A stretch of DNA of 56,426 nt from Prorocentrum cordatum (taxonomy: Eukaryota): positions 62,001 to 118,426 of the forward strand of contig CAUYUJ010000089.1 in NCBI GenBank assembly GCA_963575745.1, read 5' to 3'. Every line of letters starts with the position of its first letter. Position 1 is the stretch's first letter. Below are positions 3,236 to 56,426 of this stretch, piece after piece. A program made the translations under genes and the position numbers. The notes under the pieces were generated by a model. It saw nothing but the letters and a program-made list of their open reading frames with translations. It was not told the origin of the DNA and made no database searches.

Positions 3236-3256
3236 TGATCATTCAATGTTGTTTCT

Positions 3257-16118: not shown

Positions 16119-16334
16119 CTTGCTTTGCTCGAAGCCCACAGGGAACAGAGAAGTCCCGCTCAATATTCAGGCCCGCAGCAGAGGAGCAGGTGCTCGACAC
16201 CTTCAGCGAGGCGCTTGCTGGCCAAGAGCTCAGCTTGACACACAGCGCAGAGGGCGGGATGGCGGCAGCCTCCGAAGCTATGTTGCATAGCCAAACGCCA
16301 TGACAGAGATGAAGAGCAGGGCGAGGGAGCACAA
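16119..16334 (-). mobile_element. 3' fragment of another LINE copy in a hairpin loop, interrupted by a Helentron-like insertion at 16336
   Basis: Follows ...cgtcaaacttggt with a T-rich tail; minus strand encodes W..NIASEAAAIPPSA then, after a frameshift, QAELLASKRLAEGVEHLL, matching the C-terminus of copy 1 (WEPNVASSSFLLPPSSTIAAAELESARQLLLGVEECL). Confidence 0.7.
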
Positions 16335-21151: not shown

Positions 21152-22047
21152 CTAGCTCTCCAGCGCGCCGAAATTACTGGGCGCCGGCGGTGAACCGTCA
21201 ACCTTCCTTACCGCCGGGGGACTCGTAGAGCTTCCTGACAATATATAAGGTGGAAAAAAATGCAGAAAACGAATAGTTTTTCAGCCCAAGCGATTTCAGA
21301 CCTCTCGATGCAACAGCCGAACGCCCCCGATGCTTCTGGACTGTCTTCTTTACGAGCTCTGTAGCTCTCCTACGGCCCGAGTACGTGGGTAAATCGACAG
21401 CACCTCTCAAGATGACTCTAACAAAACGAATAGTTTGGCAACCCAGCTCGAGTATGAAACCGAGTTCAGACCTCTGAATGCGACAGGCGGACGCGTCTGA
21501 TGTCTGCGAATCGACTCCTGTGATGACCAGCCCTGCAGCCCCCCTACAGCCCGAATTAAGTGCAGAAAACCGACAGCACCTCTCAGGATGACTCGAACAA
21601 TACAATAGTTTCGCGGACCTAGTTCGGCAAGCAGAGCGAGTTCCGAGCTCTCGATGCGACAGGCGGACGCGCCTGATGTCTTCAAATCCGTTTCTGTGAC
21701 CACCAGCACTGTAGCCCCCCCCCAGCCCGAGTTGAGTGCAGAAAACCGAGAGCACTGGCGCCGGCGGTGAACCGTCAACCTGGTCTCTCTTTTTTTTGCG
21801 TCTTTGCTGGGACCGTCTTGGCCACTGAGGCCAGGTCCAACAAAGTATCAGGCAAAACAGAGCCTCTTATTCATCACGCAAGCAGTCAGCTCTTATACCA
21901 CACAGCGAAGCTGAAGGAATAAAGAGAATCACATGCCACAATGACACAATCAAACGCAAAGTACACACAGATAAACGAGGAAGCCAGTGAGCAGCGAAGC
22001 TGCAGGAATATACAAGACACGGAAAAGAAGAAACAATGTGTGTCCAA

Positions 22048-29011: not shown

Positions 29012-29410
29012 CTGGCGCCGGCGGTGAACCGTCAACCTGGTCACCGCCGGGACCCTCGTAGAGCTCCTTCCACGCGTAAGAGTGCTCAGAGCCGAAAGAG
29101 AGAGCTTCTGGAAGCATTTCTCGAAAAAGGGAAAAATTGTTTTTTTTTCGCGTCGACATGAAGATGGTTCCTCCAAGTCTTTTGATAGTAAAACTGTCTT
29201 GGAAGAGCTGAGCTGCTCGCAGGATCTAGTTAAGATGCCAATACTCGGATTTAAAATCTGCTTTCTTAAAATGAATTGTCAAATATCTTTGAAAAAATGC
29301 AAAACCACCCAAAAGTTACCACTTTGTCCTTTCTGGCCGGGTCGACCAACTAGCTCCACCCTGCGCCGGAATTCCTCTAGCTCATCGTTGCCGAAGAGCT
29401 CTACGAGGTA
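29012..29410 (-). mobile_element. Complete short-family (B) element, ~400 bp
   Basis: Both termini present; host split at gccaa|ctagctctcc with no TSD. Confidence 0.85.
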
Positions 29411-30244
29411 CTAGCTCTCCAGCGCGCCGGAATTACTGGGCGCCGGCGGTAAACCGTCAACCTTGGTTACCGCCGGGAGACTCGTAGAGCTTCCTAGCTC
29501 GACTTTAAGTTGAGCTCTGATAGTGAATATTTTTTGACTCATAGTGAATATTTTGTGACCTCTGAATGCGACAGGCGGACGCGTCTGATGTCTGCGAATC
29601 GACTCCTGTCATTACCAGCCCTGCAGCCCTCCTACAGCCCGAGTTAAGTGCAAGAGACCGACAGCACCTCTCAGGATGACTCGAACAGTACAGTAGTTTC
29701 GCAGACCTGATTCGGGCAGCAGACCGAGTTCCGAGCTCTGGATTCGACAGGCGGACGCGCCTGATGTCTTCAAATCGATTCCTGTGACAACAAGCACAAT
29801 AGCACCCCTGAACGCGAGGTAAGTGAAGAAAACCGAGAAGACTTCTCAAGATTACTCGTCCAATACGAATAGTTTCGCGATTCTAGATCGGGCAGCAGAC
29901 CGAGTTCAGAGATCTGGATTCGACACACAAACGCAATTCATGATTCTGAATCGGTTTCTGTAAATATCAGCTCTGTAGCTGTCCTACAGCTCGAGTTAAG
30001 TACAGAAAACCGAGAGTTTCTGTCAAGATGACTCGAATAATACGAATAGGTTTGCGGACCTAGCTCGGCTAACAGACCGAGTTCAGATCTCTGGATTCAA
30101 CAGGCGAACGTGCTGTGCTTACCAGCTCTGTAGCGGTTCTGAAGCTCGAGTTATGTTCAGAAAACCGTCAGCGCTTATCAAGATGACTCGAAACAGCCGA
30201 TCCCGCCACAGTGCTTTTCGATAGTAATATCACGGGAAAAAATA

Positions 30245-31440
30245 CTGGCGCCGGCGGTAAACCGTCAACCTTGGGACTCGTAGAGCTTCCTGACAACATA
30301 TAATGTCGAAAAAATTACACAGAAAGAATAGTTTCTCAGCCAAAGGAATTTCAGACCTCTCGGCAGCCGAACGCCCCCGCTTCTGGATTGTCTTCTGTAC
30401 GAGCTCTCTAGCTCTCCTCCAGCCTGAGTTACGTGCGTAAATCGACACCTCTCAAGATGATTCGAACAATTCGAATAGTTTGGCAAACCTAGCTCTAGTA
30501 TCAGACCGAGTTCAGACCTCTGCATGCGACAGGCGCACGCGTCTGATGTCTCTGGATCGATCCCTGTGATTACCAGCCCTACAGCCCCCCTACAGCCCGA
30601 GTCAAGTGCAGGAAACCGACAGCACCTCTCAGGATTACTCGAACAATACGAATAGTTTGGCGGACCTAGTTCGGGCAGCAGGCAGAGTTCGGAGCTCTCG
30701 ATTGGAAATGCACACGCGCCTGATGTTTCGGAATCGATTCCACTGATTACCAGCCATGCAACCCCCACGACGCCCCAAGTTAAGTGTAGGAGAACGATAG
30801 CACCTCTGAAGATGACTCGAACAATACGAATAGTTTCGCGATTCTAGATCGGGCAGCAGATCGAGTTCAGAGCTCTGGATTCAGACAACAGCCACTGATG
30901 ATTCTGAATCAGATTCTGTGCGCATCAGCTCTGTAGCCGTCCTGTAGCTCGAGTTAAGTACAGAAAACCGAGAGCGTCTGTCAAGATGACTCGAATGATA
31001 CAAATAGGTTTGCGGACCTAGCTCGGCTAGCAGACCGAGTTGAGACCTCTAGGTTGAACAGGCGAACGCGCATGATCATTCTAAATCGATTAGCTGTGCT
31101 AACCAGCTCTGTAGCTGCCCTACATAAAGCTCGAGTTATCTTGAGAAAACGGTCACCGCGTGAAAAGATAACCGAAACGGGCGATCCCGCCGCAGTCCTT
31201 TTTGGTAGTAAAAAGTACCTGCTCGAGCTGAGATCAAGATGACGAGCGGAAATAAGATCGAATATCACGAGAGAAAACGACTAGAGCTCAAACGAATTCT
31301 TGAATTTCAAGGAAAAAATTTTCAACCGACCAAGTCATTAAAATGTCCGTCGCGATTTTTCTTGCCAACTAGCTCTCCAGCGCCCCGGAATTACTCTCAA
31401 GCTTCCAGCAATACCTTGCTAAGGGAAGCTCTACGAGTTA
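30245..31440 (-). mobile_element. Long-family element with both ends (hairpin partly deleted)
   Basis: Ends with GGAAGCTCTACGAGTTA; host split at aaaata|c(t)agagctc. Confidence 0.75.
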
Positions 31441-32298: not shown

Positions 32299-33520
32299 TA
32301 ACTCGTAGAGCTTCCCTTAGCAAGTTATTGCTGGAAGCTTAAGAGTAGTTCCGGGGCGCTGGAGAGCTAGTTGGTAAGGAAAATCTCGACGGACCTTTTG
32401 CTGACTTTTGGTCGGTTGAAAATTTGGTTCTCGAAATTCAACAATTCGTTTGAGCTCTAGTATTTTTTCCCGTGATATTCGATCTTATTCCCGCTCGCCA
32501 TCTTGATCTCAGCTCGATCGGGTACCTTTTACTGCCAAAAAGCAGGCAGGCGGGATCGGCCGTTTCGAGTCATCTTGTCACGCGGTGTCGGTTTTCTCAA
32601 AATAACTCGAGCTTCAGAACAGCTAAAGAGCTGGTAAGCACAGCTAATCGATTCAGAATGATCAGGCGCTTTCGCCTGTTGAACCCAGAGGTCTGAATTC
32701 GGTCTGCTAGCCGAGCTAGGTGCGCAAACCTATTCGTATTATTCGAGTCATCTTGACAGGCGCTCTCGGTTTTCTGTACTTAACTCGAGCTACAAGACAG
32801 CTGAAGAGCCGATACGTATAGAATCTGATTCAGAATCATCAGTGGCCGTTGTTTGTTGAATGCAGAGCTCTGAACTCGGTCTGTTGCCCGATCTAGAATC
32901 GCGAAACTATTCGTATTGTTCGAGTCGCTTGCGAGATGCTGTCGGTTCTCTGCACTTAACTCGGGCTGTAGGGGGGCTGCATGGCTGGTAATCACTGGAA
33001 TCGATTCGGAGACATCAGGCGCGTTCGTCGGCGGAATCCAGAGCTCCGACCTCGGTCTGTTGCCCGAACTAGGTTCGCGAAACTATTCATATTGTTCGAG
33101 TCATCCTGAGAGATGCTGTCGGTTTCCTGCACTTAACTCGGCTGCAGGGGGGGCTGCAGGGCTGGTAATCACAGGGATCGATTGAGAGACATCATACGCG
33201 TCCGCCTGTCGCATGCAGAGGTCTGAACTCGGTCTGATACTCGAACTAGGTTTGCCAAACTATTCGTATGGTTCGAGTCATCTTGAGAGGTGCTGTCGAT
33301 TTACGCACGTAGCTCCGGCTGTAGGAGAGCTACAGAGCTCGTACAGAAGACAATCTAGAAGCATCGGCGGCGCTCGTCTTTTGCATCCGAGAGGTCTCAA
33401 ATTGCCCGGGCTGAAAAATTATTTGTTCCTGTGTAATTTCTTTCGACATTATATGTTGTCAGGAAGCTCTACGAGTCCCCCGGCGGTAAGAAAGGTTGAC
33501 GGTTCACCGCCGGCGCCCAG
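32299..33520 (+). mobile_element. Complete long-family element in the opposite orientation (1222 bp); defines the element structure
   Basis: Inserted in gagttatg|ttcagaaaacc with no TSD; 5' subTIR ACTCGTAGAGCTTCC (32301-32315) with internal IR GGAAGCT (32333-32339); central ~177-bp repeats; 3' subTIR GGAAGCTCTACGAGT (33462-33476); hairpin 33480-33513; CCAG end. Confidence 0.9.
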
Positions 33521-36387: not shown

Positions 36388-37923
36388 CTGGAAGCCGGCG
36401 GTAAACCGTCAACAAGGTTACCGCCGGGGCCCTCGTAGAGCTCTCTTCTCGAACGGCGCTCCTCGGTACACATGAAGGAAGATTCTGGAGCAAAACCCAA
36501 AAAAATCGAAAAATGACGTTTTTATGTTTTTTCCAAAGACGGTTCCGCCAAGTGTTTTGATAGTAATACTGCAGCTACGGACCTGAAAATTGTACTGGCA
36601 GACGCGCCTTATTCCACTACAGGTGCGCAAAATCTGGTTTCTCAAAATAAATTGTCGAATATCTTCAAATATTTGCAAAACCACCCAAAAGTTAACACTT
36701 TGTCCTTTCTGGCCGGGTCGACCAACTGGGCGCCGGCGGTAAACCGTCAACCTTCGTTACCGCCGCAGGACTCGTAGAGCTTCCTGACAACATATAATGT
36801 CGAAAAAAATTGCAGAGAACGAATAGTTTTTCAGCCCAACTCGAGTATCAGACCGAGTTCAGACCTCTGAATGCGACAGACGGACGCGTCTGATGTCTCC
36901 GAATCGATTCCTGTGATTACCCGCCCTGCAGCCTCCCTACAGCCCGAGTTAAGTGCAGAACGCCGACAGTAGCTCTCAAGATGACTGGAAGAATACGAAC
37001 AGTTTCGTGATTCTGGATCGCGCAGCAGACCGAATTCAGAGCTCTGGATTCGACAGACAAACGCGACTGATGATTCTGAATCGGTTTCTGTAACTATCAG
37101 CCCTGTAGCTGTCCTATAGCTCGAGTTAAGTACAGGAAACCGAGAGCGCCTATCAAGATGATTCGAATAATACGAATAGGTTTGCGGACCTGGCTCGGCT
37201 AGCAGACCCAGTTCAGACCTCGGGTTGGAACAGCCGAACGCGCCTGATGATTCTGAGTCGATGAGGCGTGCTTACAAGCTCTGTAGCTGTCCTATATCTC
37301 GAGTTAAGTTCAGCATACCGACAGTGCGAATCAAGATCACTTGAATAATACGAATACATTTGCGGGCCTAGCTGGCTAGCAAGCCGAGTTCAGAGCTCTG
37401 GATTGAACAGGCGAACGCACCTAATCATTCTGCATCGATTAGCTGTGCTTACTTACCAGCTCTGTAGCTGTCCTACAGCTCGAGTTAAGTACAAAATACC
37501 GACAACGCGTATCAAGATGACTCGAAACGGCCGATCCCGCCAAAAATACTAGAGCACAAACGAATAGTTGAATTTCGAGAACAACATTTTTAACCGACCA
37601 AAAGTTGTGAAAAGTTCAGTTCTTTTTTTTCGAGCCAACTGGCGCCGGCTGTGAACCGTCAACCTGGTCAACGCCGGGAACATCGTAGGGCTCCTTTCAC
37701 GCGTAAGAGTGCTCAGAATCGAAAGATAGAGCTTCTGGAAGCATTTCTCGAACAAGGGAAAACATGATTTTTTTCGTGTCGACATGAAGATGGTTCCGCC
37801 AAGTGTTTTGATAGTAAAAGTGCGCCTACAGCGCTCATACTAAGACAGATAGGCCCTCATAGTCGTTTACAGGTGCGAAAAATCTGCTTTCTCAAAATGC
37901 ATTGTCAAATATCTTTCAAAAAA

Positions 37924-38589
37924 CTTGGTAGCGCCCAAAACCCGGAGAGCAAAGAAACACACACTGGCACCGGCGGTGAAACGTCAATCTGGTCATCGCC
38001 GGGAACCTCGTAGAGCTCCTTCCACGCGTAAGAATGCTCAGAGTCGAAGAAGGAAGCTTCTGGAGGCATTTCTCAAAAAAAATAAACATCTATTTTTTTC
38101 ATGTCGACATGAAGTTGGTTCCGCCAAGTGTTTTAATAGTAAATGTGCGCCTACAGAGCTCATATTAAGAGGAAGAGGCCTCACATTCGTCTACAGGTGC
38201 GAAAAATCTGCTTTCTCAGACTAACTTATCAAATATCTTTCAAATATTCGCAAAACTACCCAAAAGTTAACACTTTGTCCTTTCTGGCCGGGTCGACCAA
38301 CTAGCTTCACCCCGCGCCGGAATTCCTCTAGCTCATCGATGGCGAAAAGCTCTACGAGATACCGGAAAGCTTTCCTGGCGAGCCCTCGGACGCTCTCGTG
38401 AAAGCGCCTCTGGGTCTCTGGGGGGAGTCCCCTGCCGCCCTGCTCAAGCGCTGACAGGAACGCTTCTACGCGTGCCTGCGCGCGTGAGGGCACGCGTGAA
38501 CGCGTGCCGGAAGCACTGCCGGACACGCTGCCGGCTCGGGCGAGCCGCTGCGGGGATCGTGGACCGGCGGAGATGGGCTGCTGCCGGGA
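37924..38589 (-). mobile_element. Second family-F element, itself interrupted by a B element (37964-38361)
   Basis: Starts cttggtagcg..aaaacccggagagc and ends ccggga; host split at ctttcaaaaaa|attgcaaaacc. Confidence 0.7.
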
Positions 38590-39852
38590 ATTGCAAAACC
38601 ACCCAAAAGTTACCACTTTGTCCTTTCTGGCCGGGTCGACCAACTGGGCGCCGGCGGTAAACCGTCAACCTTGGTTACCGCCAGGAGACTCGTAGAGCTT
38701 CCTAACTCGACTTACGTTGAGAAGACAGACAGCACTTACCAACAATCTGACTTATAGTCAATAGTTTTTGACCTCTGAATGCGACAGACGGACGCGTCTG
38801 ATGTCTTCGAATCGACTACTATCATTACCAGCCTGCAGCCCCCCTACAGCCCGAGTTAAGTGCGAAAACCGACAGCATCTCTCAGGATGACTCGAACAAT
38901 AGGAATAGTTTCGCGGACCTAGTTCGGGCAGCAGACAGAGTTCAGAGCTCTGTATTCGACAGGCGGACGCGCCTGATGTCTTCAAATCGATCCCAGTGAT
39001 TACCAGCCATGCAGCCCCTCTACAGCCCGAGTTAAGGCCAGATAACCAACAGCATCTCGCAAGCGACTCGAACAATACGAATAGTTTCGCGATTCTAGAT
39101 CGGGCAGCAGACCGAGTTCAGAGCTCTGGATTCGACAGACAAACGCAACTGATGATTCTGAATTCGTGCCTGTGAATATCAGCTCTGTAGCTGTCCTACA
39201 GCTCGAGTTAAGTGCAGAAAACCGAGAGCGTCTGTCAAGATGACTCGAATAATTCGAACAGGTTTGCGGACCTAGCTCGGCTAGCAGACCGAGTTCAGAC
39301 CTCTGGGGTCAACAGGCGAACGCGCCTGATCATTCTGCATGTATTAGCTGTGCTTACCAGCTCTGTGACTGCCCTAAAGCTCGAGTTATGTTCAGAAAAC
39401 CGTCAGCGCATATCAAGACAACTCAAAACGGCCGATCCCGCCACCGTGCTTTTCGATAGTAATATTCACCCGATCGAGCTGAGATCAAGATGGCGAGCGG
39501 GAATAAGATCGAATATCACGGGAAAACAAAATAGAGCTCAAACGAGTTGTTGAATTTCGAGAATAAAACTGGCGCCGGCGGTGAACCGTCAACCTCGTCA
39601 TCGCCGGGAACCTCGTAGAGCTCCTTCCACGCGTAAGAGTGCTCATAGTCGAAAGAACGATTTTCTAGAAGCGTTTTTGGAAGAAGAGAAAATTTGGTTT
39701 TTTTCGTGTCGACATGAAGATGGTTGCGCCAAGTGTTTTGATAGTAAAAGTGCGCCGACAGAGCTCGTATTAAGACGGAGAGGCCTTCATAGTTATTTGC
39801 AGGTGCGAAAAATCTGCTTTCTTAAAATGAATTGTCAAATATCTTTCAAATA

Positions 39853-40898
39853 TGGGCGCCGGCGGTAAACCGTCAACCTTGGTTACCGCCGGGGAACTCG
39901 TAGAGCTTCCAAGCTCGACTTAAGTTGAGAAAACCGACAGCATCTACCAACATTCTGACTCATACTGAGTATTTTTTGGCCTCTGAATGCGACAAGCGGG
40001 CGCGTCTGATGTCTGCGAATCGACTCCTGTCATTACCAGCCCCGCAGCCCCCCTACAGCCCGAGGTCAGTGCGGAAAACCGACAGCATCTCTCAGGATGA
40101 CTCGAACAATACAGTAGTTTCGCGAACCTAGTTCGGGCAGCAGACCGAGTTCCGAGCTCTGGATTCGACAGGCGGACGCGCATGATCTCTTTAAATCGAT
40201 TCATATGATAACCAGCACTGTAGCCCCCTCTCAGCGCAAGTTCAGTGAAGGAAACCGAGAGCACTTCTCAAGATGAACCGACCAATACGAATAATTTCGC
40301 GATTCTAGATCGGGCAGAAGACCGAGTTCAGAGCTCTCGATTCGACAGACAAACGCAACTGACGATTCTGAATCAGTTTCTGTAAACATCAGCTCTGTAG
40401 CTGTCTTACAGCTCGAGATAAGTACAGAAAACCGAGAGTTTCTGTCAAGATGACTCGAATAATACGAATAGGTTTGCGGACCTAGCTCGGCTCACAGACC
40501 GAGTTCAGACCTCTGGATTCAACAGGCGAACGCGCCTAATCATTCTGCATCGATTAGCTGTGCTTACCAGCTCTGTAGATGTCCTAAAGCTCGAGTTATG
40601 TTGAGAAAACCGTCAGCGCGTATCAAGATGACTCGAAACGACCGATCCCGCCAGAGTGCTTGTTGGCTTTCAAAGTTACCCGATCGAGCTGAGATCAAGA
40701 TGGCAGGCGGGAATAAAATCGAATATCACGGGAAAAAATACTAGAGCTCTAACGAATGTTCAAATTTCGAGAACAAAATTTTCAACCGACCAAAGGTCAG
40801 CAAAAGTTCCGTCGAGATTTTTCTTGCCAACTAGCTCTCCAGCGCGCCGGAATTACTCTTAAGCTTCCAGCAACTAGCTTGGGAAGCTCTACGAGTCA
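39853..40898 (-). mobile_element. Complete long-family (C) element
   Basis: Both termini; host split at ctttcaaata|ttcgcaaaacc. Confidence 0.8.
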
Positions 40899-43025
40899 TT
40901 CGCAAAACCACCCAAAAGTTGTCACATTGTCCGCCTCGGCCGGGTCGGCCAACTAGCTCCACCCCGCGCCGGAATTCCTCTAGCTCATCGATGACGAAGA
41001 GCTCTACGAGATATTTTCAACCGACCAAAAGTCAGCAAAAGTTCCGTCGAGACTGGGCGCCGGCGGTAAGCCGTCAACCTTGGTTACCGCCGGGGAACTC
41101 GTAGAGCTTCCAAGCTCGACTTAAGTTGAGAAAACCGACAGCACCTACCAACATTCTGACTGATAGTGAATATTGTTTGACCTCTGAATGCGACAAGCGG
41201 ACGCGTCTGATGTCTGCGAATCGACTCCTGTCACTACCAGCCCCGCAGCCCCCCTACAGCCCGAGGTCAATGCAGAAAACCGACAGCATCTCTCAGGATG
41301 ACTCGAACAATACAATAGTTTCGCGAACCTAGTTCGGGCAGCAGACCGAGTTCCGAGCTCTGGATTCGACAGGCGGACGCGCATGATCTCTTTAAATCGA
41401 TTCATATGAGAACCAGCACTGTATCCCCCCTCTCAGCGCAAGTTGAGTGAAGAAAACCGAGAGCACTTCTCAAGATGACTCGACCAATACGAATATAATT
41501 TCGCGATTCTAGATCGAGCAGAAGACCGAGTTCAGAGCTCTGGATTCGACAGACGAAAGCAACTGACGATTCTGAATCAGTTTCTGTAAATATCAGCTCT
41601 GCAGCTGTCTTACAGCTCGAGTTAAGTACAGAAAACCGAGAGTTTCTGTCAAGATGACTCGAATAATACGAACAGGTTTGCGGACCTAGCTCGGCTCACA
41701 GACCGAGTTCAGACCTCTAGGTTCAACATGCGAACGCGCCTGATCACTCTGCATGCATTAGCTGTGCTTACCAGCTCTGTAGCTGCCCTAGAGCTCGAGT
41801 TATGTTGATAAAACCGTCAGCGCATATCAAGATGACTCGAAACGGCCGATCCCGCCAGAGTGTTTTTTGGCCTCCAAAGTTACCCGAGCTGAGATCAAGA
41901 TGGCGATCGGGAATAAGATCGAATATCACGGGAAAAAATACTAGAGCTCTAACGAATGTTCAAATTTCGAGAACAAATTTTTCAACCGACCAAAAGTCAT
42001 CAAAACTGGGCGCCGGCGGTAAACCGTCAACCTTTCTTACCGCCGGGGGACTCGTAGAGCTTCCTAACAATATATAATGTGGAAAAGGATTTCAGAGAAC
42101 GACTAGTTTTTCAGCCCAAGCGATTATACTCTCAAGATGACTCTAAGAAAACAAACGAACAGGTTTCCAATCGAGCTCGAGTATGAAACCGATTTCAGAC
42201 CTCTGAATGCGACAGGCGGACACGTCTGATGTCTGCGGATCGATTCCTGTGATTACCAGCTCTGCAGCCCCCATACAGCCTGAGTTAAGTGCAGAAAACC
42301 GAGAGTACATCTCAGGATGACTCGAATAATACAACAGTTTCGCGGATCTCGTTCGAGCAGCAGGCTGAGTTCCGAGCTCTCGGTTCGACGAAGGGACGCG
42401 CCTGATGTCTCGAAATCGATTCCTGTGCACGATTTATGTACAGAAAACCGAGAGCACTTATCTTGAGAAACCCGACAGCGCGTATCAAGGTGACTCGAAA
42501 CGGTCGTTCCCGCCTGCCTGCTTTTTGGCCTTCAAAGTTAACCGATCGAGCTGAGATCGAGATGGCGAGCGGGAATAAGATCGAATAGCATGGGAAAAAA
42601 TACTAGAGCTCTAACGAATAGTCAAATTTTGAGCACAAAATTTTCAACCGACCAAAAGTCACCAAAAGGTCCGTCGAGATTTTTCTTGCCAACTAGCTCT
42701 CCAGCTTCCCGGAACTGGCGCCGGCGGTAAACCGTCAACCTGGTCACCGCCGGGAACCTCGTAGAGCTGATTCCACAAGTAAGAGTGCTCGAAGTCGAAA
42801 GAGAGAGCTTCTGGAAGCATTTCTGGAACAAACAGAAAAATTGATTTTTTTCGTGTCGACATGAAGATGGTTCCTCCAAGTGTTTTGATAGTAAAAATGC
42901 GCCTACAGAGCTCATACTAAGACAGAGAGGCCCTCATATTCGTTTACAGGTGCGAAAAATCTGCTTTCTGAAAATGAATTGTCAAATATCTTTCAAAAAA
43001 CTGCAAAACCACCAAAAAGTTACCA

Positions 43026-44652
43026 CTGGGCGCCGGCGGTAAACCGTCAACCTTGGTTACCGCCGGGGAACTCGTAGAGCTTCCAAGCTCGACTTAAGTT
43101 GAGAAAACCGAGAGCACCTACCAACATTCTGACTCATAGTGAATATTTTTTGACCTCTGAATGCGACAAGCGGACGCGTCTGATCAGACCGAGTTCAGAG
43201 CTCTCAATGCGACAGGCGGACGCGTCTGATGTCTGCGAATCGACTCATGTGATTTCCAGCCCTGCAGCCCCCCTACAGCCCGAGTTAAGTGCAGAAACCG
43301 AAAGCATCTCTCAGGATGACTCGAATAATATAATAGTTTCGCAGACCTGTTTCGAGCAGCAGACCAAGTTCTGAGCTCTCGAATCGACCAACGAACGCGC
43401 CTGCTATGTGCAAATCGATTTCTATGACCCGCAGCACTGTAGCTCTCCCCCAGCACGAGTTGAGTGCAGAAAATTGAGAGCACTTTTCACGATAATTCTG
43501 ACAAAACGAATAGTTTCGCGAACCTAGCTCGGGCAGCAGGCCGAGTTCAGAGCTCTCGATACAACAGACAAACGCGCCCGATAATTCTCAATCGATTTCT
43601 GTGACTGTAGGCTCTGTAGCTGCCTACAGCTCGAGTTAAGTACAGAAAATACCGAGAGCGTTTGTCAAGAAGACTCGAATAATACGAATAGATTTGCGGA
43701 CCTAGCTCGGCTAGCAGACCCAGTTCAGACCTCTGGAGTCAAGAGGCGAACGCGCCTGATGATTTTGAGTGCGATAGGAGTGCTTACCGGCACTGTAGCT
43801 GCCCTGCAGCTCGAATTAAGTACAAAATACTCACCACGCGTATCAAGTTGACTCGAATAATACGAATAGGTTTGCGGACCTAGCTCGGCTAGCAGATCGA
43901 GTTCAGACCTATGGATTCAACAGGCGAACGCGCCTGATGATTCTGAGTGCGATAGGTGTGCTTACCAGCACTGTAGCTGCCCTACAGCTCGAGTTAAGTA
44001 GAAATACCGACAACGCGTATCATGTTTACTCGAATAATACGAATAAGTTTGCGGACCTAGCTAGGCTAGCAGACCGAGTTCAGACCTATGGATTGAACAG
44101 GCGAACGCGTCTGATGATTCTAAGTGCGATAGATGTGCTTACCAGCACTGTAGCTGCCCTACAGTTCGAGTTAAGTAGGAAATACCGACAATGCGTATCA
44201 AGTTGACTCGAATAATACGAATAGGTTTGCGGACCTAGCTCGGCTAGCAGACCGAGTTCAGACCTATGGATTCAACACGCGAACGACTGATGATTCTGAG
44301 TGCGATAGCTGTGCTTACCAGCTCTGTAGCTGTTCTACAGCTCGAGTTAAGTACAAAATACAGACAGCGCGTATTAAGATGACTCGAAACGGCCGATCCC
44401 GCCAGTGTGCTTTTTGGCAGTAAAAGGTACCCGATCGAGCTGAAATCAAGATGGCGAGCGGGAATGAGATCGAATATCACGGGAAAAAATACTAGAGCAC
44501 AGACGAATTGTTGAATTTCGAGAACATAATTTTCAACCGACCAAAAGTTGTGAAAAGTTCAGTTCTTTTTTTTCGAGCCAACTAGCTCTCCAGCGCGCCG
44601 GAATTACTCTTAGCTTCCAGCTATAAGTAGCTAAGGGAAGCTCTACGAGTTA
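43026..44652 (-). mobile_element. Complete long-family (C) element with expanded ~177-bp repeats; innermost member of the 8-deep nest
   Basis: Host split at gttacca|ctttgtcc; repeat anchors at 43672, 43850, 44027, 44205 and 44381. Confidence 0.85.
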
Positions 44653-45161
44653 CTTTGTCCTTTCTGGCCGGGCCGGCCAACTAGCTCCACCTCGCGCCGG
44701 AATTCCTCTAGCTCATCGATGCCGAAGAGCTCTACGAGGTATTACTCTTAAGCTTCCAGCAATAACCTGCTAAGGGAAGCTCTACGAGTTAATTCCGTCG
44801 ATATTTTTCTTGCCAACTAGCTCTCCAGCGCGCCGGAATTACTCTTAAGCTTCCATCAACTAGCTTAGGGAAGCTATACGAGTCATTTTTCTTGCCAACT
44901 AGCTCTCCAGCGCCCCGGAATTACTCTAAAGCTTTCAGCAATAACTTTCTAAGGGAAGCTCTACGAGTTACTAGCTCCACCCCGCGCCGGAATTCCTCTA
45001 GCTCATCGATTCCGAAGAGCTCTACGAGGTACTAGCTCTCCAGTGCGCCGGAATTACTCGTAAGCTTCCAGCAACTAGCTTAGGGAAGCCCCACGAGTCA
45101 CTAGCTCCACCCCGCGCCGGAATTCCTCCAGCTCATCGATGCCGAAGAGCTTTACGAGGTA
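44653..45161 (-). mobile_element. Run of seven displaced 5'-terminal fragments closing the nested elements
   Basis: Fragments end at 44741, 44791, 44885, 44970, 45031, 45100 and 45161; each resumes the sequence of an element interrupted upstream. Confidence 0.85.
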
Positions 45162-46868
45162 CTGGGCGCCGGCGGTAAACCGTCAACCTTGGTTACCGCC
45201 GGGGAACTCGTAGAGCTTCCAAGCTGAAAACCGAGAGCACCTACCAACATTCTGACTCATAGTGAATATTTTTTTACCTCTGAATGCGACAAGCGGACGC
45301 GTCTGATGAGACCGAGTTCAGGCCTCTCAATGCGACAGGCGAACGCGTCTGATGTCTGCGAATCGACTCATGTGATTACCAGCCCTGCAGCCCCCCGACA
45401 GCCCGAGTTAAGTGCAGAAAACCGACAGCATCTCTGAGGATGACTCGAATAATATAATAGTTTCGCAGACTGTTTCGAGAAGCAGACCAAGTTCTAAGCT
45501 CTCGAATCGACCAACGAACGCGCCTGATGTGTGCAAATCGATTTCTATGACCCGCAGCACTGTAGCCCTCCCCCAGCACGAGTTGAGTGCAGAAAATTGA
45601 GAGCACTTTTCACCATGAATCGGACAATACGAATAGTTTCGCGAACCTTGCTCGGGCAGCAGGCCGAGTTCAGAGCTCTCGATACAACAGACAAACGCGC
45701 CCGATAATTATCAATCGATTTCTGTGACTGTAGGCTCTGTAGCTGCCTACAGCTCGAATTGAGTACAGAAAATACCCAGAGTGTTTGTCAAGATGACTCG
45801 AATAATACGAATAGATTTGCGGACCTAGCTCAGCTAGCAGACAGACCTATGGATTTAACCGTCGAACGCGCCTGATGATTCTGAGTGCGATAGGTGTGCT
45901 TACCAGCACTGTAGCTGCCCGGCAGCTCGGATTAAGTACAAAATACCCACCACACGTATCAAGTTCACTCGAATGATACGAATAGGTTTGCGGACCTAGA
46001 TCGGCTAGCAGACCGAGTTCAGACCTATCGATTCAGCAGGCGAACGCGCCTGATGATTCTGAGTGCGATAGGCGTGCTTACCAGCAATGTAGCTGCCCTA
46101 CAGCTCGAGTTAAGTAGAAAATATCGACAACGCGTATCAAGTTGACTCGAATGATACGAATAGGTTTGCGGACCTAGCTCGGCTAGCAGACCGAGTTCAG
46201 ACCTATGCATTCAACAGGCGAACGCGCCTGACGATTCTGAGTGCGATAGGTGTGCTTACCAGCACTGTAGCTGCCCTACAGCTCGAGTTAAGTAGAAAAT
46301 ATCGACAACGCGTATCAAGTTGACTCGAATAATACGAATAGGTTTGCTGACCTAGCTCGGCTAGCAGACCGAGTACAGACCTATGGATTCAACAGGCGAA
46401 CGCGCCTCATGATTCTGAGTGCGATAGCTGTGCTTGCCAGCTCTGTAGCTGACCTACAGCTGGAGTTAAGTACAAAATACCGACAACGCGTATCAAGATG
46501 ACTCGAAACGACCGATCCCGCCAGAGTGCTTTTTGGCAGTAAAAGGTACCCGATCGAGCTCAGATCAAGATGGCGAGCGGGAATAAGATCGAATATCACG
46601 GGAAAAATACTAGAGCTCTAACGAATTGTCAAATTTCGAGAACGTAATCTTCAACCGACCAAAAGTTGTGAAAAATTCAGTTCTTTTTTTTCGAGCCAAC
46701 TGGCGCCGGCCGTGAACCGTCAACCTGGTCATCGCCGGGAACCTCGTAGAGCTCCTCTCACTAGTAAGAGTGCAGAGAATCGACACAGAATGAAAAATTG
46801 AGATTTTTCGAAAATCTTCAAACTTATTTTTTTTCAATGTTCATATTCGCTCAGTTCCCGGAAGTCAA

Positions 46869-47270: not shown

Positions 47271-47625
47271 CTCATGCAAAAATGCATCGAGAGAGCTGAG
47301 CTGCTGTCAGAATGGAGTTCATATGCCAATGCTCGGCGTAAAAATCTGCTTATTCAAAATAAATGGTCAAATATCTTTCAAATTTTCGCAAAACCACCCA
47401 AATGGGCGCCGGCGGTAAACCGTCAACCTTGGTTTTGTTTGTTTGTTTGCGCTCCTGTGCACCAGCTGTAAAGCAGCTGGAGGAGAACGAGTCCCGAAGC
47501 AGCGAACGCAGCGAACGGGCAACGCACAAAGCGTTCAGGCGGCACACCTACACAGTGAACCTCCTTTGAAGGTCAGGCAACGTTTCAACGATCGGAGTTA
47601 AGGGGAAAGCAGAGCAGAAAGAAGA

Positions 47626-49203
47626 TTACGAGTAGCCTACTACACAATACTCATGTGGCGCAGGATAAAAGTAAAAGGCACACATCTCATCATAAGTCCA
47701 GCCGTATGGATGCCAGTCGAAATCCATAAGCTCCGATGGTGCAGGCATATGGCACAGGTCCATGTACGACCACTCCAGTTCTTCAAATCTCGCACTGGAC
47801 ATTTGCGGATTCCGCACCGCCTCCTCGACTGAGACAGCATTGTGCAGCATACCGAGCAGGGGAAGGACGTCGGCGAGTCGCATATGTAGTAACTTCGTAC
47901 CGCAAATGACGTCCCCCATAGCGACATACGTGCGCACGACCACTGTGAAAGGGTCGAAGAACTTCGCACATCCCAAGTCAACATACAGTGGGTGCCGTTG
48001 GACCTCTGGGGACGCCGCAAGAATGGAGCCCACCTCGGACTTGCTGACCCTGCGGATACACTTGAACTCATTCTCAGCGCCCATAAGGAGAAAACCCTCC
48101 AACGGCGTCCCAAGAGACTCACTCAGACCAGCATAACCCGCATACCCGCTCTCTGGGTGGAGGACGTCCTGGAGATTCTCGCCACTCGCAGCCTCCCTCC
48201 AAGCACCAACAATGAAACATATAGGCACCCAAGTATCGTGTACATCATCTGCGCAGCACGTCACCAGTTCCCGCGGCGCAGGGAACTCAATATCATAAGT
48301 GGGAACACAGCCTGGATTCAATACAACATTGAGCGTGACATCGGAATCTGCCTGCACTTTGGGCGTCGAAGAAAACTCTGCACTCGAAAGAGGTACCGCG
48401 GGAAGCAACGAGTGAGCCCTTACATCAGCCAAAGAAGCACTCTGCGCACAGCCAGGGTTCGATACCACAGCGAGCGTGACATCGGATACTGCCTCCAACT
48501 CCTCCTCCGCCTCCTCCGTCACTTTCCCAAGAACAGTTCCTGAAGCTTCTCCCTCCATCCCAAAAACACTCTCTGTCTGACAGCCGACTTCAAAGGGCTC
48601 CAGAGGATAAGATGAAAGAAGTGCATACACGTCCGAAGAAGATGAGACCACTGCCTTCACATCAGAAGAAGATGAGACCACTGCCTTCACATCAGAAGAA
48701 GAAGATGAAAGAACTGCATACATGTCAGAAGAAGATGAGACCACTGCCTGCACATCCTCGCAAGTGAACTGAGTTTGCACGCCGGCACCCATTGAAGAAA
48801 CTGGAATGCTTTGAGAATTCACTTGGACCTCAGCATCCATTGAAGACACTCGAATGCTTGGAAAGGGGGAATGCACTTCGTCAACCTGGACACCAGCATC
48901 AATTGAAAATACTCGAATGCTTTGAGAAGGATGTTCGACCTCGTCAACCTGGACCCCAGCATCAATAGCAGAAGAAAAACCGCGAAGTGCAACGGAATCA
49001 ACTATCGGGCAGCTATCAGAGGGATGGAGTAATGCTGTCAACAACTCATTCGCCTGAGCATCCAACTCTGCATGCAAGACCGTGTCGCGGGCGACTAGGC
49101 CTTCGAGCACCAACGGAAGAGGACAATTCGGTCGAACCCATTTAAGTTGACAAGCCCGAGCCCGACGCAAACACCTGGATGCGAGACTCCGCACATGAGG
49201 CAT
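47626..49203 (-). CDS. Intronless ~525-aa acidic, Ser/Val-rich hypothetical protein with internal repeats
   Basis: Uninterrupted ORF (first ATG at 49203); repeats DAGVQVDEV, DVKAVVSSSS and SDVTLxVVxNPGC; no APE or RT motifs. Confidence 0.6.
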   Translation of the reverse strand: MPHVRSLASRCLRRARACQLKWVRPNCPLPLVLEGLVARDTVLHAELDAQANELLTALLHPSDSCPIVDSVALRGFSSAIDAGVQVDEVEHPSQSIRVFSIDAGVQVDEVHSPFPSIRVSSMDAEVQVNSQSIPVSSMGAGVQTQFTCEDVQAVVSSSSDMYAVLSSSSSDVKAVVSSSSDVKAVVSSSSDVYALLSSYPLEPFEVGCQTESVFGMEGEASGTVLGKVTEEAEEELEAVSDVTLAVVSNPGCAQSASLADVRAHSLLPAVPLSSAEFSSTPKVQADSDVTLNVVLNPGCVPTYDIEFPAPRELVTCCADDVHDTWVPICFIVGAWREAASGENLQDVLHPESGYAGYAGLSESLGTPLEGFLLMGAENEFKCIRRVSKSEVGSILAASPEVQRHPLYVDLGCAKFFDPFTVVVRTYVAMGDVICGTKLLHMRLADVLPLLGMLHNAVSVEEAVRNPQMSSARFEELEWSYMDLCHMPAPSELMDFDWHPYGWTYDEMCAFYFYPAPHEYCVVGYS

Positions 49204-49560
49204 CTGGCACAAACAAAACCACAAATGATAGGTATATGGCAGAAAACTGAAGGGAGATGTGTGAGGACACCTGAGAGATCACAACAATGATATACTGCAA
49301 ATTGAACAATATGCAATCCACTCAAGGCAGATCTGAAAGAACCGAGACTTACGAGCACCACTCTGGGCAGTGAGGAACAAGTCAGCGTATACAAATTGCC
49401 GCCGCCGAACCGCAACGAGAAATGAATATGAGAGGCCAACAATGACAAGCAAGATGTACAGGGAGATGGGCAGTTGCGTAAGCAGAGCAAAACAACACGC
49501 TAGCTCAACGTTCACCTTCGCGGAGGTTCCCCAGGCAGGAGAAAATGAACGTAGCGGAGC

Positions 49561-49582
49561 CTTGAGCCTTGAGCCTTGAGCC
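49561..49582 (-). other. Triplicated spliced-leader relic (G)GCTCAAG
   Basis: Plus strand cttgagc cttgagc cttgagc c, directly abutting the resumed target ggggaactcgtagagcttcc. Confidence 0.7.
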
Positions 49583-51892
49583 GGGGAACTCGTAGAGCTT
49601 CCAAGCTCGACTTGAGTTGAGAAAACCGAGAGCACCTACCAACATTCTGACTCATAGTGAATATTTTTTGACCTCTGAATGCGACAAGCGGGCGCGTCTG
49701 ATCAGACCGAGTTCAGACCTCTCAATGCGACAGGCGGACGCGTCTGATGTCTGCGAATCGACTCATGTGAGTACCAGCCCTGCAGCCCCCCTACAGCCCG
49801 AGTTAAGTGCAGAAAACCGACAGCATCTCTCAGGATGACTCGAATAATACAACAGTTTCGCAGACCTATTTCCAGCAGCAGACCAAGTTCTGGGCTCAAG
49901 AATCGACCAACGAACGCGCCGGATGTGTGCAAATCGATTTCTATGACCCGCAGCACTGTAGCCCTCCCCCAGCACGAGTTGAGTGCAGAAAATTGAGGGC
50001 ACTTTCCACGATGATTCGGACAATACGAATAGTTTCGCGAACCTAGCTCGGGCAGCAGGCCGAGTTCAGAGCTTTTCGCACAAGAGACAAACGCGCCCGA
50101 TAATTCTCAATCGATTTCTGTGACTGTAGTCTCTGTAGCTGCCGACAGCTCGAGTTAAGTACAGAAAATACCGAGAGCGTTTGTCAAGATGACTCGAATA
50201 ATACCAATAGATTTGCGGACCTAGCTTGGCTAGCAGACCGAGTTCAGACCTCTGGAGTCAAGAGGCGAACGCGCCTGATCATTCTGAACGCGATAGGTGT
50301 GCTTACCATCACTGTAGCTGCCCTGAAGCTCCAATTAAGTACAAAATACCCACCACGCGTATCAAGTGGACTCGAATAATACGAATAGGTTTGCGAACCT
50401 AGCTCGGCTAGACCGAGTTCAGACCTGTCGATTCAACGGGCAAACGCGCCCGATGATTCTGAGTGCGATAGATGTGCTTACCAGCACTGTAGCTGCCCTG
50501 AAGCTCGAGTTAAGTAGAAAATACCGACAACGCGTATCAAGATGACTCGAATAATACGAGTAGGTTTGCGGACCTAGCTCTGCTGATAGACCGAGTTGAG
50601 ACCTCTGGGTTCAACAGGCGAACGCGTCTCATGGTTCTGAGTGCGATAGCTGTGCTTACCAGCTCTGTAGCTGTCCTACAGCTCGAGTTAAGTACAAAAT
50701 ACCGACAATGCGTATCAAGATGACTCGAAACGACCGATCCCGCCAGTGTGCTTTTTGGCAGTAAAAGGTACCCGATCGAGCTGAGATCAAGATGGCGAGC
50801 GGGAATAAGATCGAATATCACGAGAAAAAATACTAGAGCTCTAACGAATTGTCCAATTTTTAGAACATAACTGGGCGCCGGCGGTAAACCGTCAACCTTT
50901 CTTACCGCCGGGGGACTCGTAGAGCTTCCTGACAATATATAATGTGGAAAAGAATTTCAGAGAACGACTAGTTTTTCAGCCCAAGCGATTACATACCTCT
51001 CAAGATGACTCTAACAAAAACAACGAACAGTTTTCCAATCGAGGTTGAGTATGAAACCGAGTTCAGACCTCTGAATGCGACAGGCGGACGCGTCTGATGT
51101 CTGCGGATCGGTTCCTGTGATTACCAGCTCTGCAGCCCCCCATACAGCCTGAGTTAAGTGCAGAAAACCGAGAGTACCTCTCAGGATGACTCGAATAATA
51201 CAACAGTTTCGCGAATCTTGTTCGAGCAGCAGAGCGAGTTCCGAGCTCTGAGTTCGACGAACGGACGCGCCTGATGTCTCGAAATCGATTCCTGTGACCA
51301 GCAGCACTGTAGCCCTGCCCCAGCACGATTTAAGTACAGAAACCGAGAGCACTTCTCAAGATGGCACGAACAATATCAATAGGTTCGCGAACCTAGCTCG
51401 CGGAGCAGGCCGAGTTCAGAGCTCTTGATTCAACAGACGAACGCGCCTGATAATTCTCAATCGATCTCTGTGATTACCAGCTCTGTGGCTGCCCTATAGA
51501 TCGAGTTAAGTACGGAAAATCGAGAGCATCTGCTACAATGACTCGAATAATACGAATAGGTTTGCGACCCTAGCTCGGCTAGCAGACCGAGTTCAGAGCT
51601 CTGGATTCAACAGGCGAACGCGCCTGATCATTCTGGATGCATTAGCTGTGCCAACCAGCTCTGTAGTTGTCCTGAAGCTCGAGTTATCTTGAGAAAACCG
51701 ACAGCGCGTATCAAGATGACTCGAAACGGCCGTTCCCGCCGGGACGCTTTTTGGCCTTCAAAGTTACCCGATCGAGCTGAGATCAAGATGACGAGCGGGA
51801 ATAAGATCGAATATCATGGGAAAAAATACTAGAGCTCAAACGAATTGTTGAATTTCGAGAACAAAATTTTCAACCGACCCAAAGTCACCAAA

Positions 51893-52291
51893 CTGGCGCC
51901 GGCGGTGAACCGTCAACCTGGTCACCGCCGGGAACCTCGTAGAGCTCCTTGCATCCGTGAGAAAGCTCAGCATCGAAGCGGGAGCTTCTGGTAGCTTTTC
52001 TAGAAAAACTTCAAGTTGAGATTTTTCGGAGTCAACATGAAGTCGGTTCCTCCAAGTGAACTGGTACTGGAAATGACTCTAGAGGGCTGAGCTGCTCAGA
52101 GAACAAAGTTTATATCTCAATGCTCGGAGTAAAAATCTGTTTTATCAAAATGAATTGTCAAATATCTTTCAAAAAAATTGCAAAACCACCCAAAAGTTGT
52201 CACATTGTCCGCCTCGGCCGGCTGGGCCAACTAGCTCCACCCCGCGCCGGAATTTCTCTAGCTCATCGATGCCGAAAAGCTCTACGAGGTA
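51893..52291 (-). mobile_element. Complete short-family (B) element
   Basis: Both termini; host split at caccaaa|aggtccgtc. Confidence 0.8.
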
Positions 52292-52363
52292 AGGTCCGTC
52301 GAGATTTTTCTTGCCAACTAGCTCTCCAGCTCCCCGGAATTACTCTTAAGCTTCCAGCAATAA

Positions 52364-53482
52364 CTGGGCGCCGGCGGTAAACCGTCAACCTTTCCTACCG
52401 CCGGGGGACTCGTAGAGCTTCCTGACAATATATAATGTGGGGAAGAATTTCAGAGAACGACTAGTTTTTCAGCCCAAGCGATTATAGACCTCTCAAGATG
52501 ACTCTAACAAAACAAACGAACAGTTTTCCAATCGAGCTCGAGTATGAAACCGAGTTCAGACCTCTGAATGCGACTGGCGGACGCGTCTCATGTCTGCGGA
52601 TCGATTCCTGTGATTACCAGCTCTGCAGCCCCCCATACAGCCTGAGTTAAGTGCAGAAAACCGAGAGTACCTCTCAGGATAACTCGAATAATACAACAGT
52701 TTCGTGGATCTCGTTCGCAGCAGACCGAGTTCCGAGCTCTCGGTTCGACCAACGGACGCGCCTAATGTCTCGAAATCGATTCCTGTGACCAGCAGCACTG
52801 TAGCCCTCCCCCAGCACGATTTAAGTACAGAAAACCGAGAGCACTTCTCAAGATGACTCGAACAATACCAATAGGTTCGCGAACCTAGCTCGGGAATCAG
52901 GCCGAATTCAGAGCTCTTGATTCAACAGACGAACGCGCCTGATAATTCTCAATCGATTTCTGTGATTATCAGCTCTGTGGCTGCCCTACAGATCGAGTTA
53001 AGTACGAAAAACCAAGAGCGTCTGCTACAATGACTCGAATAATACGAATAGGTTTGCGACCCTAGCTCGGCTAGCAGACCGAGTTCAGACCTCTGGATTC
53101 AACAGGCGAACGCGCCTGATCATTCTGAATGCATTAGCTGTGCTGACCAGCTCTGTAGTTGTCCTAAAGCTCGAGTTATCTTGAGAAAACCGACAGCGCG
53201 TATCAAGATAACTCGAAACGGCTGTTCCCGCCCGTGCGCTTTTTGGCCTTCAAAGTTACTCGATCGAGCTGAAATCAAGATGGCGAGCGGGAATAAGATC
53301 GAATATCATGGGAAAAAATACTAGAGCTCTAACGAATGTTCAAATTTCAAGAAGAAAATTTTCAACCGACCAAAAGTCAGCAAAAGGTCCGTCGAGATTT
53401 TTCTGGCCAACTAGCTCTCCAGCTCCCCGGAATTACTCTTAAGCTTCCAGCAATAACGTGCTAAGGGAAGCTCTACGAGTTA
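52364..53482 (-). mobile_element. Complete long-family (A) element
   Basis: Both termini; host split at cagcaataa|cttgctaaggg. Confidence 0.85.
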
Positions 53483-53585
53483 CTTGCTAAGGGAAGCTCT
53501 ACGAGTTATTTTCAACCGATCAAAAGTTGTGAAAAGTTCAGTTCTTTTTTTTCGAGCCAACTAGCTCTCCAGCGCGCCGGAATTA

Positions 53586-55761: not shown

Positions 55762-56426
55762 CTCTTAGCTTCCAGCTATAACTGGCGCCGGCGGTAAACC
55801 GTCAACCTGGTCACCGCCGGGAACCTCGTAGAGCTCCTACGCGCGTACAAGTGCTGAGCATCATAAGAGAGGCCTTCTGGAGGCATTTCTCAAGAAAGAG
55901 AAAACATGATGTTTTTTTAATGTCGAAATGAAGTTAGTTTCGCCAAGTGTTTTGATAGTAAAAGTGCATCTAGAGAGCTCATATCGAGACGCAGAGGCCC
56001 TCATAGTCGTCTACAGGTGCGAAGAATCTGCTTTCTCAAAATAAATGGTCAACTATCTTTCAAAAAATCGCAAAACCACCCAAAAGTTGTCACATTGTCC
56101 GTTCTGGCCGGGTCGGCCAACTGGGCGCCGGCGGTAAACCGTCAACCTTTCTTACCGCCGGGGGACTCGTAGAGCTTCCTGACAATATATACTGTGGAAA
56201 AAAACTCAAAAGAACGACTATTTCTTTAAGCCCAAGCGATTTCAGACCTCTCAAGATAACGCTAACAAAAAGCAAACAGTTTCGCAACCCAGTTCGAGTA
56301 TCAAACCGAGTTCAGACCTCTGAATTCGACAGACGGGCGCGTCTGATGTCTGCGAATCCACTCATCTCATTCCCAGCTCTGAAGCCCCCCTACAGCCCGA
56401 GTTAAGTGCAGAAAACCGACAGTATC

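Follow-up and report, generated by a model that had tools for sequence, protein, structure and literature searches.

A nest of probable Helitron2/HINE-like transposons in Prorocentrum cordatum, eight layers deep and built by serial insertion without target duplication

A stretch of 56,426 nucleotides from the genome of Prorocentrum cordatum (assembly GCA_963575745.1, contig CAUYUJ010000089.1, positions 62,001 to 118,426 of the forward strand), called the window below and numbered from its first letter, was analysed around a nest of mobile elements at positions 36388–45161. From about 5.9 kb to its right end, almost all of the window belongs to one repeat system, in which two non-coding families were recognised: family A, of 0.8–1.6 kb, and family B, of about 400 bp. 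The left ('head') end of both is marked by the 20-nt motif GCCGGCGGTRAACCGTCAAC, which occurs 41 times in the window when up to three mismatches are allowed, 40 times on the plus strand; it was absent from 100 shuffled sequences, so that chance is excluded. Members of family A start with CTGGGCGCC, carry 2–5 units of a 177-bp satellite and end in GGGAAGCTCTACGAGT[TC]A. Members of family B start with CTGGCGCC and end in GAAGAGCTCTACGAG[GA]TA. Following the Helitron convention, by which the 5′ T and the terminal inverted repeat lie at what is here the right-hand end, the A and B layers of the nest were assigned to the minus strand.

The outermost element of the nest (layer 1) is a B copy whose two arms, 36388–36725 and 45101–45161, are separated at CCAA|CTAGCTC and rebuild to 399 bp. 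It encloses layer 2, an A copy of 982 bp (36726–37638 and 45032–45100) broken at the same motif. Layer 3 is again of B type and lies in three pieces (37639–37923, 38591–38643 and 44971–45031), which make up 399 bp after excision of a small element, C, and of the inner nest. Layer 4, an A copy of 1049 bp, is likewise in three pieces (38644–39568, 41014–41052 and 44886–44970). Layer 5 (A type; 41053–42005 and 44792–44885) shows one substitution at its joint, 42005|44792, and layer 6 (A type; 42006–42714 and 44742–44791) is broken at CCGGAA|TTACTCTT. Layer 7, a B copy of 400 bp (42715–43025 and 44653–44741), holds the innermost element, layer 8, an intact A copy of 1627 bp at 43026–44652 with five satellite units of 178 bp. 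The seven closing fragments thus stand side by side in 44653–45161, in the reverse order of opening, with lengths of 89, 50, 94, 85, 61, 69 and 61 nt.

The initial annotation had described this region as eight elements that open at 36388, 36726, 37639, 38644, 41053, 42006, 42715 and 43026 and close last-in, first-out at 44652, 44741, 44791, 44885, 44970, 45031, 45100 and 45161. All of these positions are element ends at the named bases, the order of the closers is the exact reverse of that of the openers, and the four joints it had quoted are correct. It had also proposed that excision should restore continuous hosts. For each host, the 40 nt left of the interruption were joined to the 40 nt right of the matching closer and compared with the rest of the window, the nest being masked. 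All seven joints turned out to be seamless: each host is contiguous with uninterrupted copies outside the nest, in gapless alignments across the join with 88–99% identity. In a 7 × 7 matrix pairing every left arm with every right arm (hosts numbered 0–6), all the diagonal cells, which correspond to last-in, first-out pairing, were positive. Hosts 3–6 match with their own closer only. Hosts 0–2 share the break CCAA|CTAGCTC and cross-match at the 15-nt level; since their tails are B, A and B, host 1 is set apart and only the two B closers are interchangeable. After excision the nested B copies measure 399, 399, 399 and 400 bp, compared with 399 bp for an intact B.

Two side nests, also claimed by the initial annotation, are real, with small corrections. 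In layer 4, a B copy at 39569–41013 (minus strand; 39569–39852 and 40899–41013, 399 bp) does hold an A copy at 39853–40898 (1046 bp), with 17 and 7 gapless reference matches respectively, although the A copy lacks its first base. The nest at 37924/37964 within layer 3 is real too, except that its outer member is the different, small element C (37924–37963 and 38362–38590, entered without a strand), which carries a B copy of 398 bp at 37964–38361; the joint of C has no reference copy. This element is GC-rich, is found again at 20693–20992, and occupies two different positions in B copies; compared with A, B and the long interspersed nuclear element (LINE)-like elements described below, it gave no match. 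The region 47403–55782, for which the same structure had been claimed, also parses as a nest, but the element at 47403 itself has no closer inside the window. Over the whole window, 19 of 23 excisions gave a joint that was matched without gaps by another copy. The other four comprise one with a 1-nt gap (30245–31440), two members of head-to-tail pairs, for which unsuitable flanks had been taken, and one insertion in a rare element that has no reference copy.

Because the excisions are seamless, the rebuilt lengths are canonical and each closer fits its host in family and break point as well as in order, no reading fits other than serial insertion into earlier copies without target-site duplication. 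Relative order can therefore be read from the nesting, each host being older than its insert, and the proposal that the array is a chronological record is supported. In intergenic DNA of maize, long terminal repeat (LTR) retrotransposons have inserted into earlier insertions, which gives a relative chronology in the same manner as here. Unlike the present nest, those of maize show target duplications, either orientation and no fixed host site, and can be dated by their LTR pairs.

The insertions are strongly biased, with 40 of 41 heads on one strand. On the plus strand, 39 of 39 heads follow an A, and 26 of them follow AA. Read on the minus strand, the element always lies directly 5′ of a host T, and because the element itself starts with T the insertion point has a one-base ambiguity. 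A place on a host reference could be given to 31 of the 39 heads; in 30 of these the site lies 0–161 nt from the plus-strand 3′ end of the host, which is its 5′ end in the Helitron sense, in hosts of 0.4–1.6 kb, and in the remaining one it lies 1170 nt from that end. The hot spot CCAA|CTAGCTC, located 61 nt from the end in B and 71–74 nt in A, has been used about ten times, and CCGGAA|TTACTCTT and GGAATTA|CTCTT are further recurrent sites. In minus-strand terms these hot spots (...GAGCTAG|TTGG, AAGAGTAA|TTCCGG and AAGAG|TAATTCC) lie just past the 5′ hairpin. Another recurrent site is the very end of a resident copy, where three head-to-tail junctions between different families were found. At 36387|36388, 45161|45162 and 54876|54877 the head-to-tail partners are 67–84% identical or of different families, and as they differ, these junctions represent independent insertions exactly at a resident terminus and not concatemers of one circle. 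Only one family A copy, at 32299–33520, is inverted; it is inserted without a seam, between G and T, where its host carries the satellite and not in the terminal hot region, and a T follows it on its own strand too.

New copies enter the same strand of the residents, nearly always in the first ~25–160 nt past the resident 5′ end. Each insertion splits and destroys the hot spot it uses and brings a fresh one with it, so that the next insertion tends toward the newest copy; long bodies accumulate to one side and short 5′ stubs to the other. This replacement of every split hot spot by an intact one in the new copy explains why the chain is almost linear. If hosts were chosen uniformly, a tree of 12 elements would reach a height of at least 8 in 0.8% of simulations.

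The termini of the elements share one architecture. On the minus strand the 5′ end consists of T, 1–2 nt and then ACTCGTAGAGC... in A or CCTCGTAGAGC... in B, the starts observed being TAACTCG, TACCTCG, TGACTCG and TATCTCG. The 3′ end reads ...GCTCTACGAG, followed by 4–5 nt, a hairpin of 12–13 bp (CCGGCGGTAACC / GGTTTACCGCCGG) and 6–7 nt. Between them the arms make a perfect inverted repeat, 11–16 nt long in the copies of the window and starting 1–3 nt from the 5′ end. The 3′ arm stops 45 nt short of the terminus, directly upstream of the hairpin, which itself lies 7 nt from the end. In the innermost element, the hairpin stem is formed by 43033–43045 with 43055–43066 (minus strand), ending 7 nt from the Helitron-sense 3′ terminus. 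The subterminal 3′ arm of its asymmetric terminal inverted repeat is at 43069–43084 (minus strand; plus-strand sequence AACTCGTAGAGCTTCC) and forms a perfect 16-nt repeat with the terminal 5′ arm at 44636–44651 (minus strand), which is 1 nt from the element end and contributes to the 5′ hairpin, a fold over nt 3–47 of the minus strand. Family-specific extensions co-vary in both arms; examples are GCTTCC for A and GCTC(T) for B, while further families have GCAGGATG or GCTCCTT. Folded as single-stranded DNA, the 3′ hairpin has −15.9 kcal/mol (z = −2.96). A 5′ hairpin takes in the 5′ arm, with nt 3 pairing to nt ~37–47 of the minus strand in DNA folds of both A and B.

The same module is found well beyond this window. 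A 21-mer of the hairpin, together with the ACTCGTAGAGC core, occurs exactly in at least 124 metagenome contigs, several of them labelled as marine assemblies. These contigs hold many families with differing 6-nt leaders (TGTCGA, CTCGAA, CTGGGA, CTTGAC and others) and unrelated interiors around the same hairpin and inverted-repeat core. Complete elements in them span 340–1800 bp, with inverted repeats of 8–23 nt, and an A stands 7 nt upstream in 96 of the 106 distinct heads among the matches listed. Genes flanking the metagenome copies include those for pantoate ligase, pyruvate kinase, PAPS reductase and a protein with a starch-synthase domain.

We consider it likely that the nest consists of non-autonomous Helitron2/Helentron (HINE-like) rolling-circle transposons, accumulated by serial insertions without target duplication, and that they make up a new family. 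Since no Rep/helicase partner was found, membership is judged from the structure of the DNA. In the portions of the literature drawn on here, Helitron2 elements are defined by a 5′ T, terminal inverted repeats that are short and asymmetric, and the lack of target duplication; their 5′ arm is terminal and within a 5′ hairpin, and their 3′ arm is just upstream of the 3′ hairpin, 20–30 nt from the end (PMC3627910). In HINEs the arms lie 2–4 nt from the 5′ end and 38–60 nt from the 3′ end; they also have a palindrome on the 3′ side and tandem repeats in the centre (PMC4067079). The present elements show no target-site duplication (7 of 7 excisions in the nest and 19 of 23 in the window being seamless), a 5′ T with a repeat arm of 11–16 nt that begins 1–3 nt from the 5′ end (8–15 bp and 0–4 nt being expected), a subterminal 3′ arm directly upstream of the 3′ hairpin, and a 5′ hairpin that includes the 5′ arm, the last with moderate support (z ~ −2.2).

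Three described groups are close enough to be compared. Like the non-autonomous Helitron2 element Helitron-1N1_CRe of Chlamydomonas (Bao and Jurka 2013, PMC3627910), the elements have the 5′ T, the layout of arms and hairpins, co-varying arms and no duplication. They differ in the 3′ arm at 45 nt instead of 20–30 nt, in a target of any base followed by T instead of TTTT|T/C, in their extreme self-nesting, which the consulted portions of that paper do not describe, and in that no RepHel partner was identified here (PMC3627910). With HINEs/DINE-1 (Thomas et al. 2014, PMC4067079) they share subterminal arm positions, tandem repeats in the centre, an abundance of copies within repeat-rich regions and a 3′ palindrome 8–35 nt from the end. 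Unlike HINEs/DINE-1, they are not bounded by T runs, only 26 of 39 sites agree with a TT target, and they strongly prefer their own 5′ end, a preference not reported in the consulted portions of that account (PMC4067079). The FoHeli elements of Fusarium (Chellapan et al. 2016, PMC5148889) are Helitron2-like and carry several short (<200 bp) 5′ termini stacked before a single 3′ terminus, as the copies here do, an arrangement ascribed in that paper to self-insertion close to the 5′ end. As far as those portions of the paper go, the FoHeli stacks comprise one or two duplications, with nesting inferred and one nested case reported; here, in contrast, at least 8 layers were verified together with all of their matching halves, the hot spots recur and the strand bias is near-total (PMC5148889).

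Several observations weigh against this assignment or against the nest as parsed. The 5′ hairpin beats shuffles only moderately (z = −2.18 in the innermost element), 5 of 200 shuffled sequences folding equally well. The 3′ arm at 45 nt is outside the Helitron2 range, though inside that of HINEs. Of 39 sites, only 26 agree with the published TT or T(T/C) target, and they do so under just one phasing of the ambiguous terminal T, the other phasing being equally valid. Pfam scans gave no Rep/helicase open reading frame (ORF) within the window or among the metagenome contigs: no match to Helitron_like_N or PIF1 was obtained for the ORFs of the window and for 46 of the 144 ORFs of at least 130 amino acids (aa) from contigs of at least 1.5 kb. 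Wider scans for such a partner yielded three uninformative short contigs of metagenome-assembled genomes from genome contigs, and nothing from viral contigs. As to the parse, the excision of 30245–31440 leaves its 1-nt gap, and a deletion at ~35019/35020 breaks the bracketing locally; about 160 bp have been removed there over a head-to-tail junction, taking the last ~12 nt of one A copy and ~150 nt of the next head. The long-range order was not confirmed by reads from four public runs, which gave contigs of ~80–170 nt in this repeat. Such contigs cannot bridge layers and so have no bearing for or against that order.

Divergence also failed to behave as the initial annotation had predicted, namely to fall with nesting depth. 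Measured from the majority consensus of each family, it shows no gradient (Spearman rho = −0.43, p = 0.29, n = 8), and in only 4 of 11 pairs is the host more diverged than its direct insert. Copies differ by 6–33%, and subfamilies are interleaved through the layers. The hairpin core, which is under functional constraint, has only 17 mismatches in 820 sites, and set against the 6–33% divergence of copies this suggests that most differences predate insertion and that decay since then amounts to ~2%. With so little decay and interleaved subfamilies, the divergence clock is confounded and of low power. The order is readable from topology, not from divergence.

What else could these elements be? 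The strongest alternative is that they belong to an undescribed or different superfamily with the same layout of hairpin and inverted repeat, moved by a single-tyrosine HUH Rep, by an IS200/IS605-like peel-and-paste enzyme or by another single-strand transposase; the nest would have grown in the same way. The missing RepHel partner speaks for it, as does the exact recurrence of the hairpin 21-mer across families whose leaders and interiors are unrelated. So does the lack of known matches to the hairpin: in the searchable literature its 11-mers, and those of the repeat, gave only unrelated primer coincidences and its 14-mers nothing, and Rfam returned no match for the whole window at gathering thresholds and none at E values up to 1 over 42700–45300, which also leaves a reading as a ribozyme or other known RNA unsupported. 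Strand-specific insertion without duplication, beside subterminal hairpins, is moreover a hallmark of IS200/IS605. Those elements, however, insert 3′ of a specific word of 4–5 nt that also flanks their left end, and have no terminal inverted repeats; here the flank is constant at only a single base (A in 39 of 39, a second A in 26 of 39) and an inverted repeat of 11–16 nt is present. The short direct end repeats of Replitrons are not seen, and the structural features that define Helitron2/HINE are all present as far as they could be tested. We therefore regard a separate superfamily as unlikely, although it deserves to be kept in mind.

Two further candidates fit poorly. Canonical Helitrons (Helitron1) have 5′-TC and 3′-CTRR ends, insert at A|T and lack a 5′ hairpin; the present elements begin with T[AGC][ACT]C... 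and finish with ...CCAG or ...CGCCAG, any of G, A, C or T may stand in the 5′ flank, and a 5′ hairpin is present. Elements of Crypton/DIRS type, moved by a tyrosine recombinase, share a core of several nt between their joined ends and the target and do not require terminal hairpins. In the window, what target and end junction have in common does not exceed A|CT or A|TT, and no recombinase ORF was found.

The nested order itself could have been produced by mis-joining of a highly repeated family during assembly. The family is indeed extremely abundant, with summed word depths of up to ~1e5 in the four runs; the share of words of the stretch found is 0.48 and 0.40 in two runs from organisms and 0.12–0.26 in aquatic metagenomes, and no read or contig spans more than 1–2 joints. 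Mis-joins at homologous positions would nevertheless give recombinant copies and not seven closers matched to their openers in reverse, nor would they yield rebuilt lengths of 399–400 bp, and copies that differ by 6–33% are distinct enough for long-read assemblers. An artefact is accordingly very improbable in our judgement. We give equally little credence to the idea that unequal crossing-over, gene conversion or segmental duplication in a satellite-like array produced the pattern, with no transposition involved. Internal 177-bp tandem repeats are present, and a composite of B tail, 25 nt of A tail and A head recurs at 21151–21177 and 29410–29436. Recombination, though, yields tandem or hybrid units and not precise brackets round complete elements with defined termini; the inverted copy at 32299–33520 is just as seamless; and the recurring composites differ internally (B copy of 697 versus 399 bp), which fits reuse of a hot spot.

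Four minus-strand insertions of another kind occupy a single position in the terminal hairpin, on the plus strand ...CAACCTTGGT[TC]|ACC..., always at the same phosphodiester (GGT[TC]|ACC). The LINE-like element L1 (21786–27655, minus strand) lies in the hairpin of the B copy at 21755, carries ORFs of 348, 165 and 1316 aa, and has the host ACC (3 nt) missing. L2 (7901–14578, minus strand), also LINE-like, is flanked by an 8-bp duplication, CCTTGGTT, at 7893–7900 and 14579–14586. The retroelement-like L3 (47435–49579, minus strand) shares the 5′ motif GGAGGTTCCCCAGGCAG with L1 and likewise lacks the host ACC. L4, LINE-like and on the minus strand, runs from 16120 (16120–16335) and is interrupted at 16336 by a B copy. 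The 1316-aa ORF of L1 (ORF2) has a weak match to RVT_1, and its Atlas neighbours have endonuclease, reverse transcriptase (RT) and RNase H domains; no homologue of it was found at E ≤ 1e−10 among 8000 candidates scored. ORFs of L2 are 33–37% identical to ORF2 of L1. The 550-aa ORF of L3 (47629–49278, minus strand) showed no Pfam match and no similarity to the ORFs of L1 or L2. A similar insertion occurs in one metagenome contig (L112, ~140–435). L1 is not part of the families that form the nest. Directly after the resumed host element beside L2, an imperfect (GAG)n run of 445 bp occupies 14714–15158.

L1–L4 are probably a site-specific LINE clade that resides in the terminus of Helitron-like elements. 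Site-specific non-LTR retrotransposons include R2 in ribosomal DNA and Tx1L in the transposon Tx1D, and the elements described here resemble them in that several insertions share a single fixed position and a single orientation in a conserved multicopy target; unlike in R2 and Tx1L, the target is the terminal hairpin of a Helitron-like transposon. Since the array contains, in the same orientation, LINE-like elements whose ORFs are of endonuclease/RT type, A and B might be short interspersed nuclear element (SINE)-like copies retrotransposed by them, the least credible of all the readings, because A and B have exact ends on both sides that are unlike LINE ends, with no LINE similarity, A-rich tail, target duplication or series of 5′ truncations, while the 8-bp duplication of L2 shows what retro-insertion looks like here.

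How far does the nesting extend? When the whole window is parsed as a stack, 22 elements find their closers and 18 heads are still open at its right end; 13 of these heads opened before 36388. If the open heads close beyond the window, the true depth of the nest is probably over 20. The 13 elements open at 36388 would then find their ends there, and the closers can be predicted, from the innermost outwards: 56121 (A), 55782 (B, continuing at CTAGCTCC), 47403 (A, with ~26 nt left), 46700 (B) and 45162 (A, resuming at CTAGCTCT) should be followed by the headless A at 35020 (~29 nt), 29436 (~50 nt) and 27889 (~46 nt), then by 21755 (B, ~115 nt), 21177 (~1.2 kb), 19316 (~46 nt) and 18150 (~50 nt), then by 17817 (61 nt), 16669 (~74 nt), 16336 (61 nt) and the remainder of L4, and last by 16087, 7868 and a root element at ~5902. 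The whole array seems to be rooted in a diverged element at 5902–7867, whose head is degenerate (GCCGGCGGTAAACAATCAAG...) and whose tail is A-like. The DNA to the left of this element (1–5800) is unique and GC-rich (~60–63% GC) and contains a (CTC)43 run at 3255–3382 and a 73-bp tandem repeat at 3611–4376.

Taking the elements as Helitron2/HINE-like, a mechanism can be proposed for their bias. A RepHel enzyme (HUH plus helicase) supplied in trans would move them. Loaded on a resident 5′ end, it would unwind the strand, and the exposed R|T sites past the hairpin would become the preferred single-stranded target for an incoming copy, with GGAGAGCTAG|TTGGCAAG as the candidate target of the cognate Rep. 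Exposure of single strand at the resident 5′ end would, on this proposal, account for both the strand bias and the position bias. A much broader picture may be drawn, which we offer as a tentative and rather doubtful one. The elements could represent a widespread, undescribed HUH-type single-strand lineage of aquatic microbial eukaryotes, in which a conserved enzyme recognises the near-invariant hairpin and copies home to the 5′ end of the newest copy as a 'safe haven', giving one-directional dolls of more than 20 layers. Such nests might turn into satellite-like heterochromatin, and the hairpin might serve as the dedicated site of a LINE clade.

In an extreme and fully verifiable form, the nest exemplifies self-insertion near the 5′ end, a tendency already known. 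As an example of a DNA transposon whose preferred target is its own 5′ end, it is unusually clean and bracketed throughout, and it provides direct sequence evidence for the self-insertion model of Helitrons with several 5′ termini. For the choice of targets by Helitron-type enzymes, a poorly understood matter, it supplies a concrete target motif. The conserved hairpin module and the LINE-like elements inside it are leads for the annotation of repeats in protists, and the array as a whole illustrates how the use and renewal of a hot spot can make a mobile element into a long, one-directional, satellite-like array.

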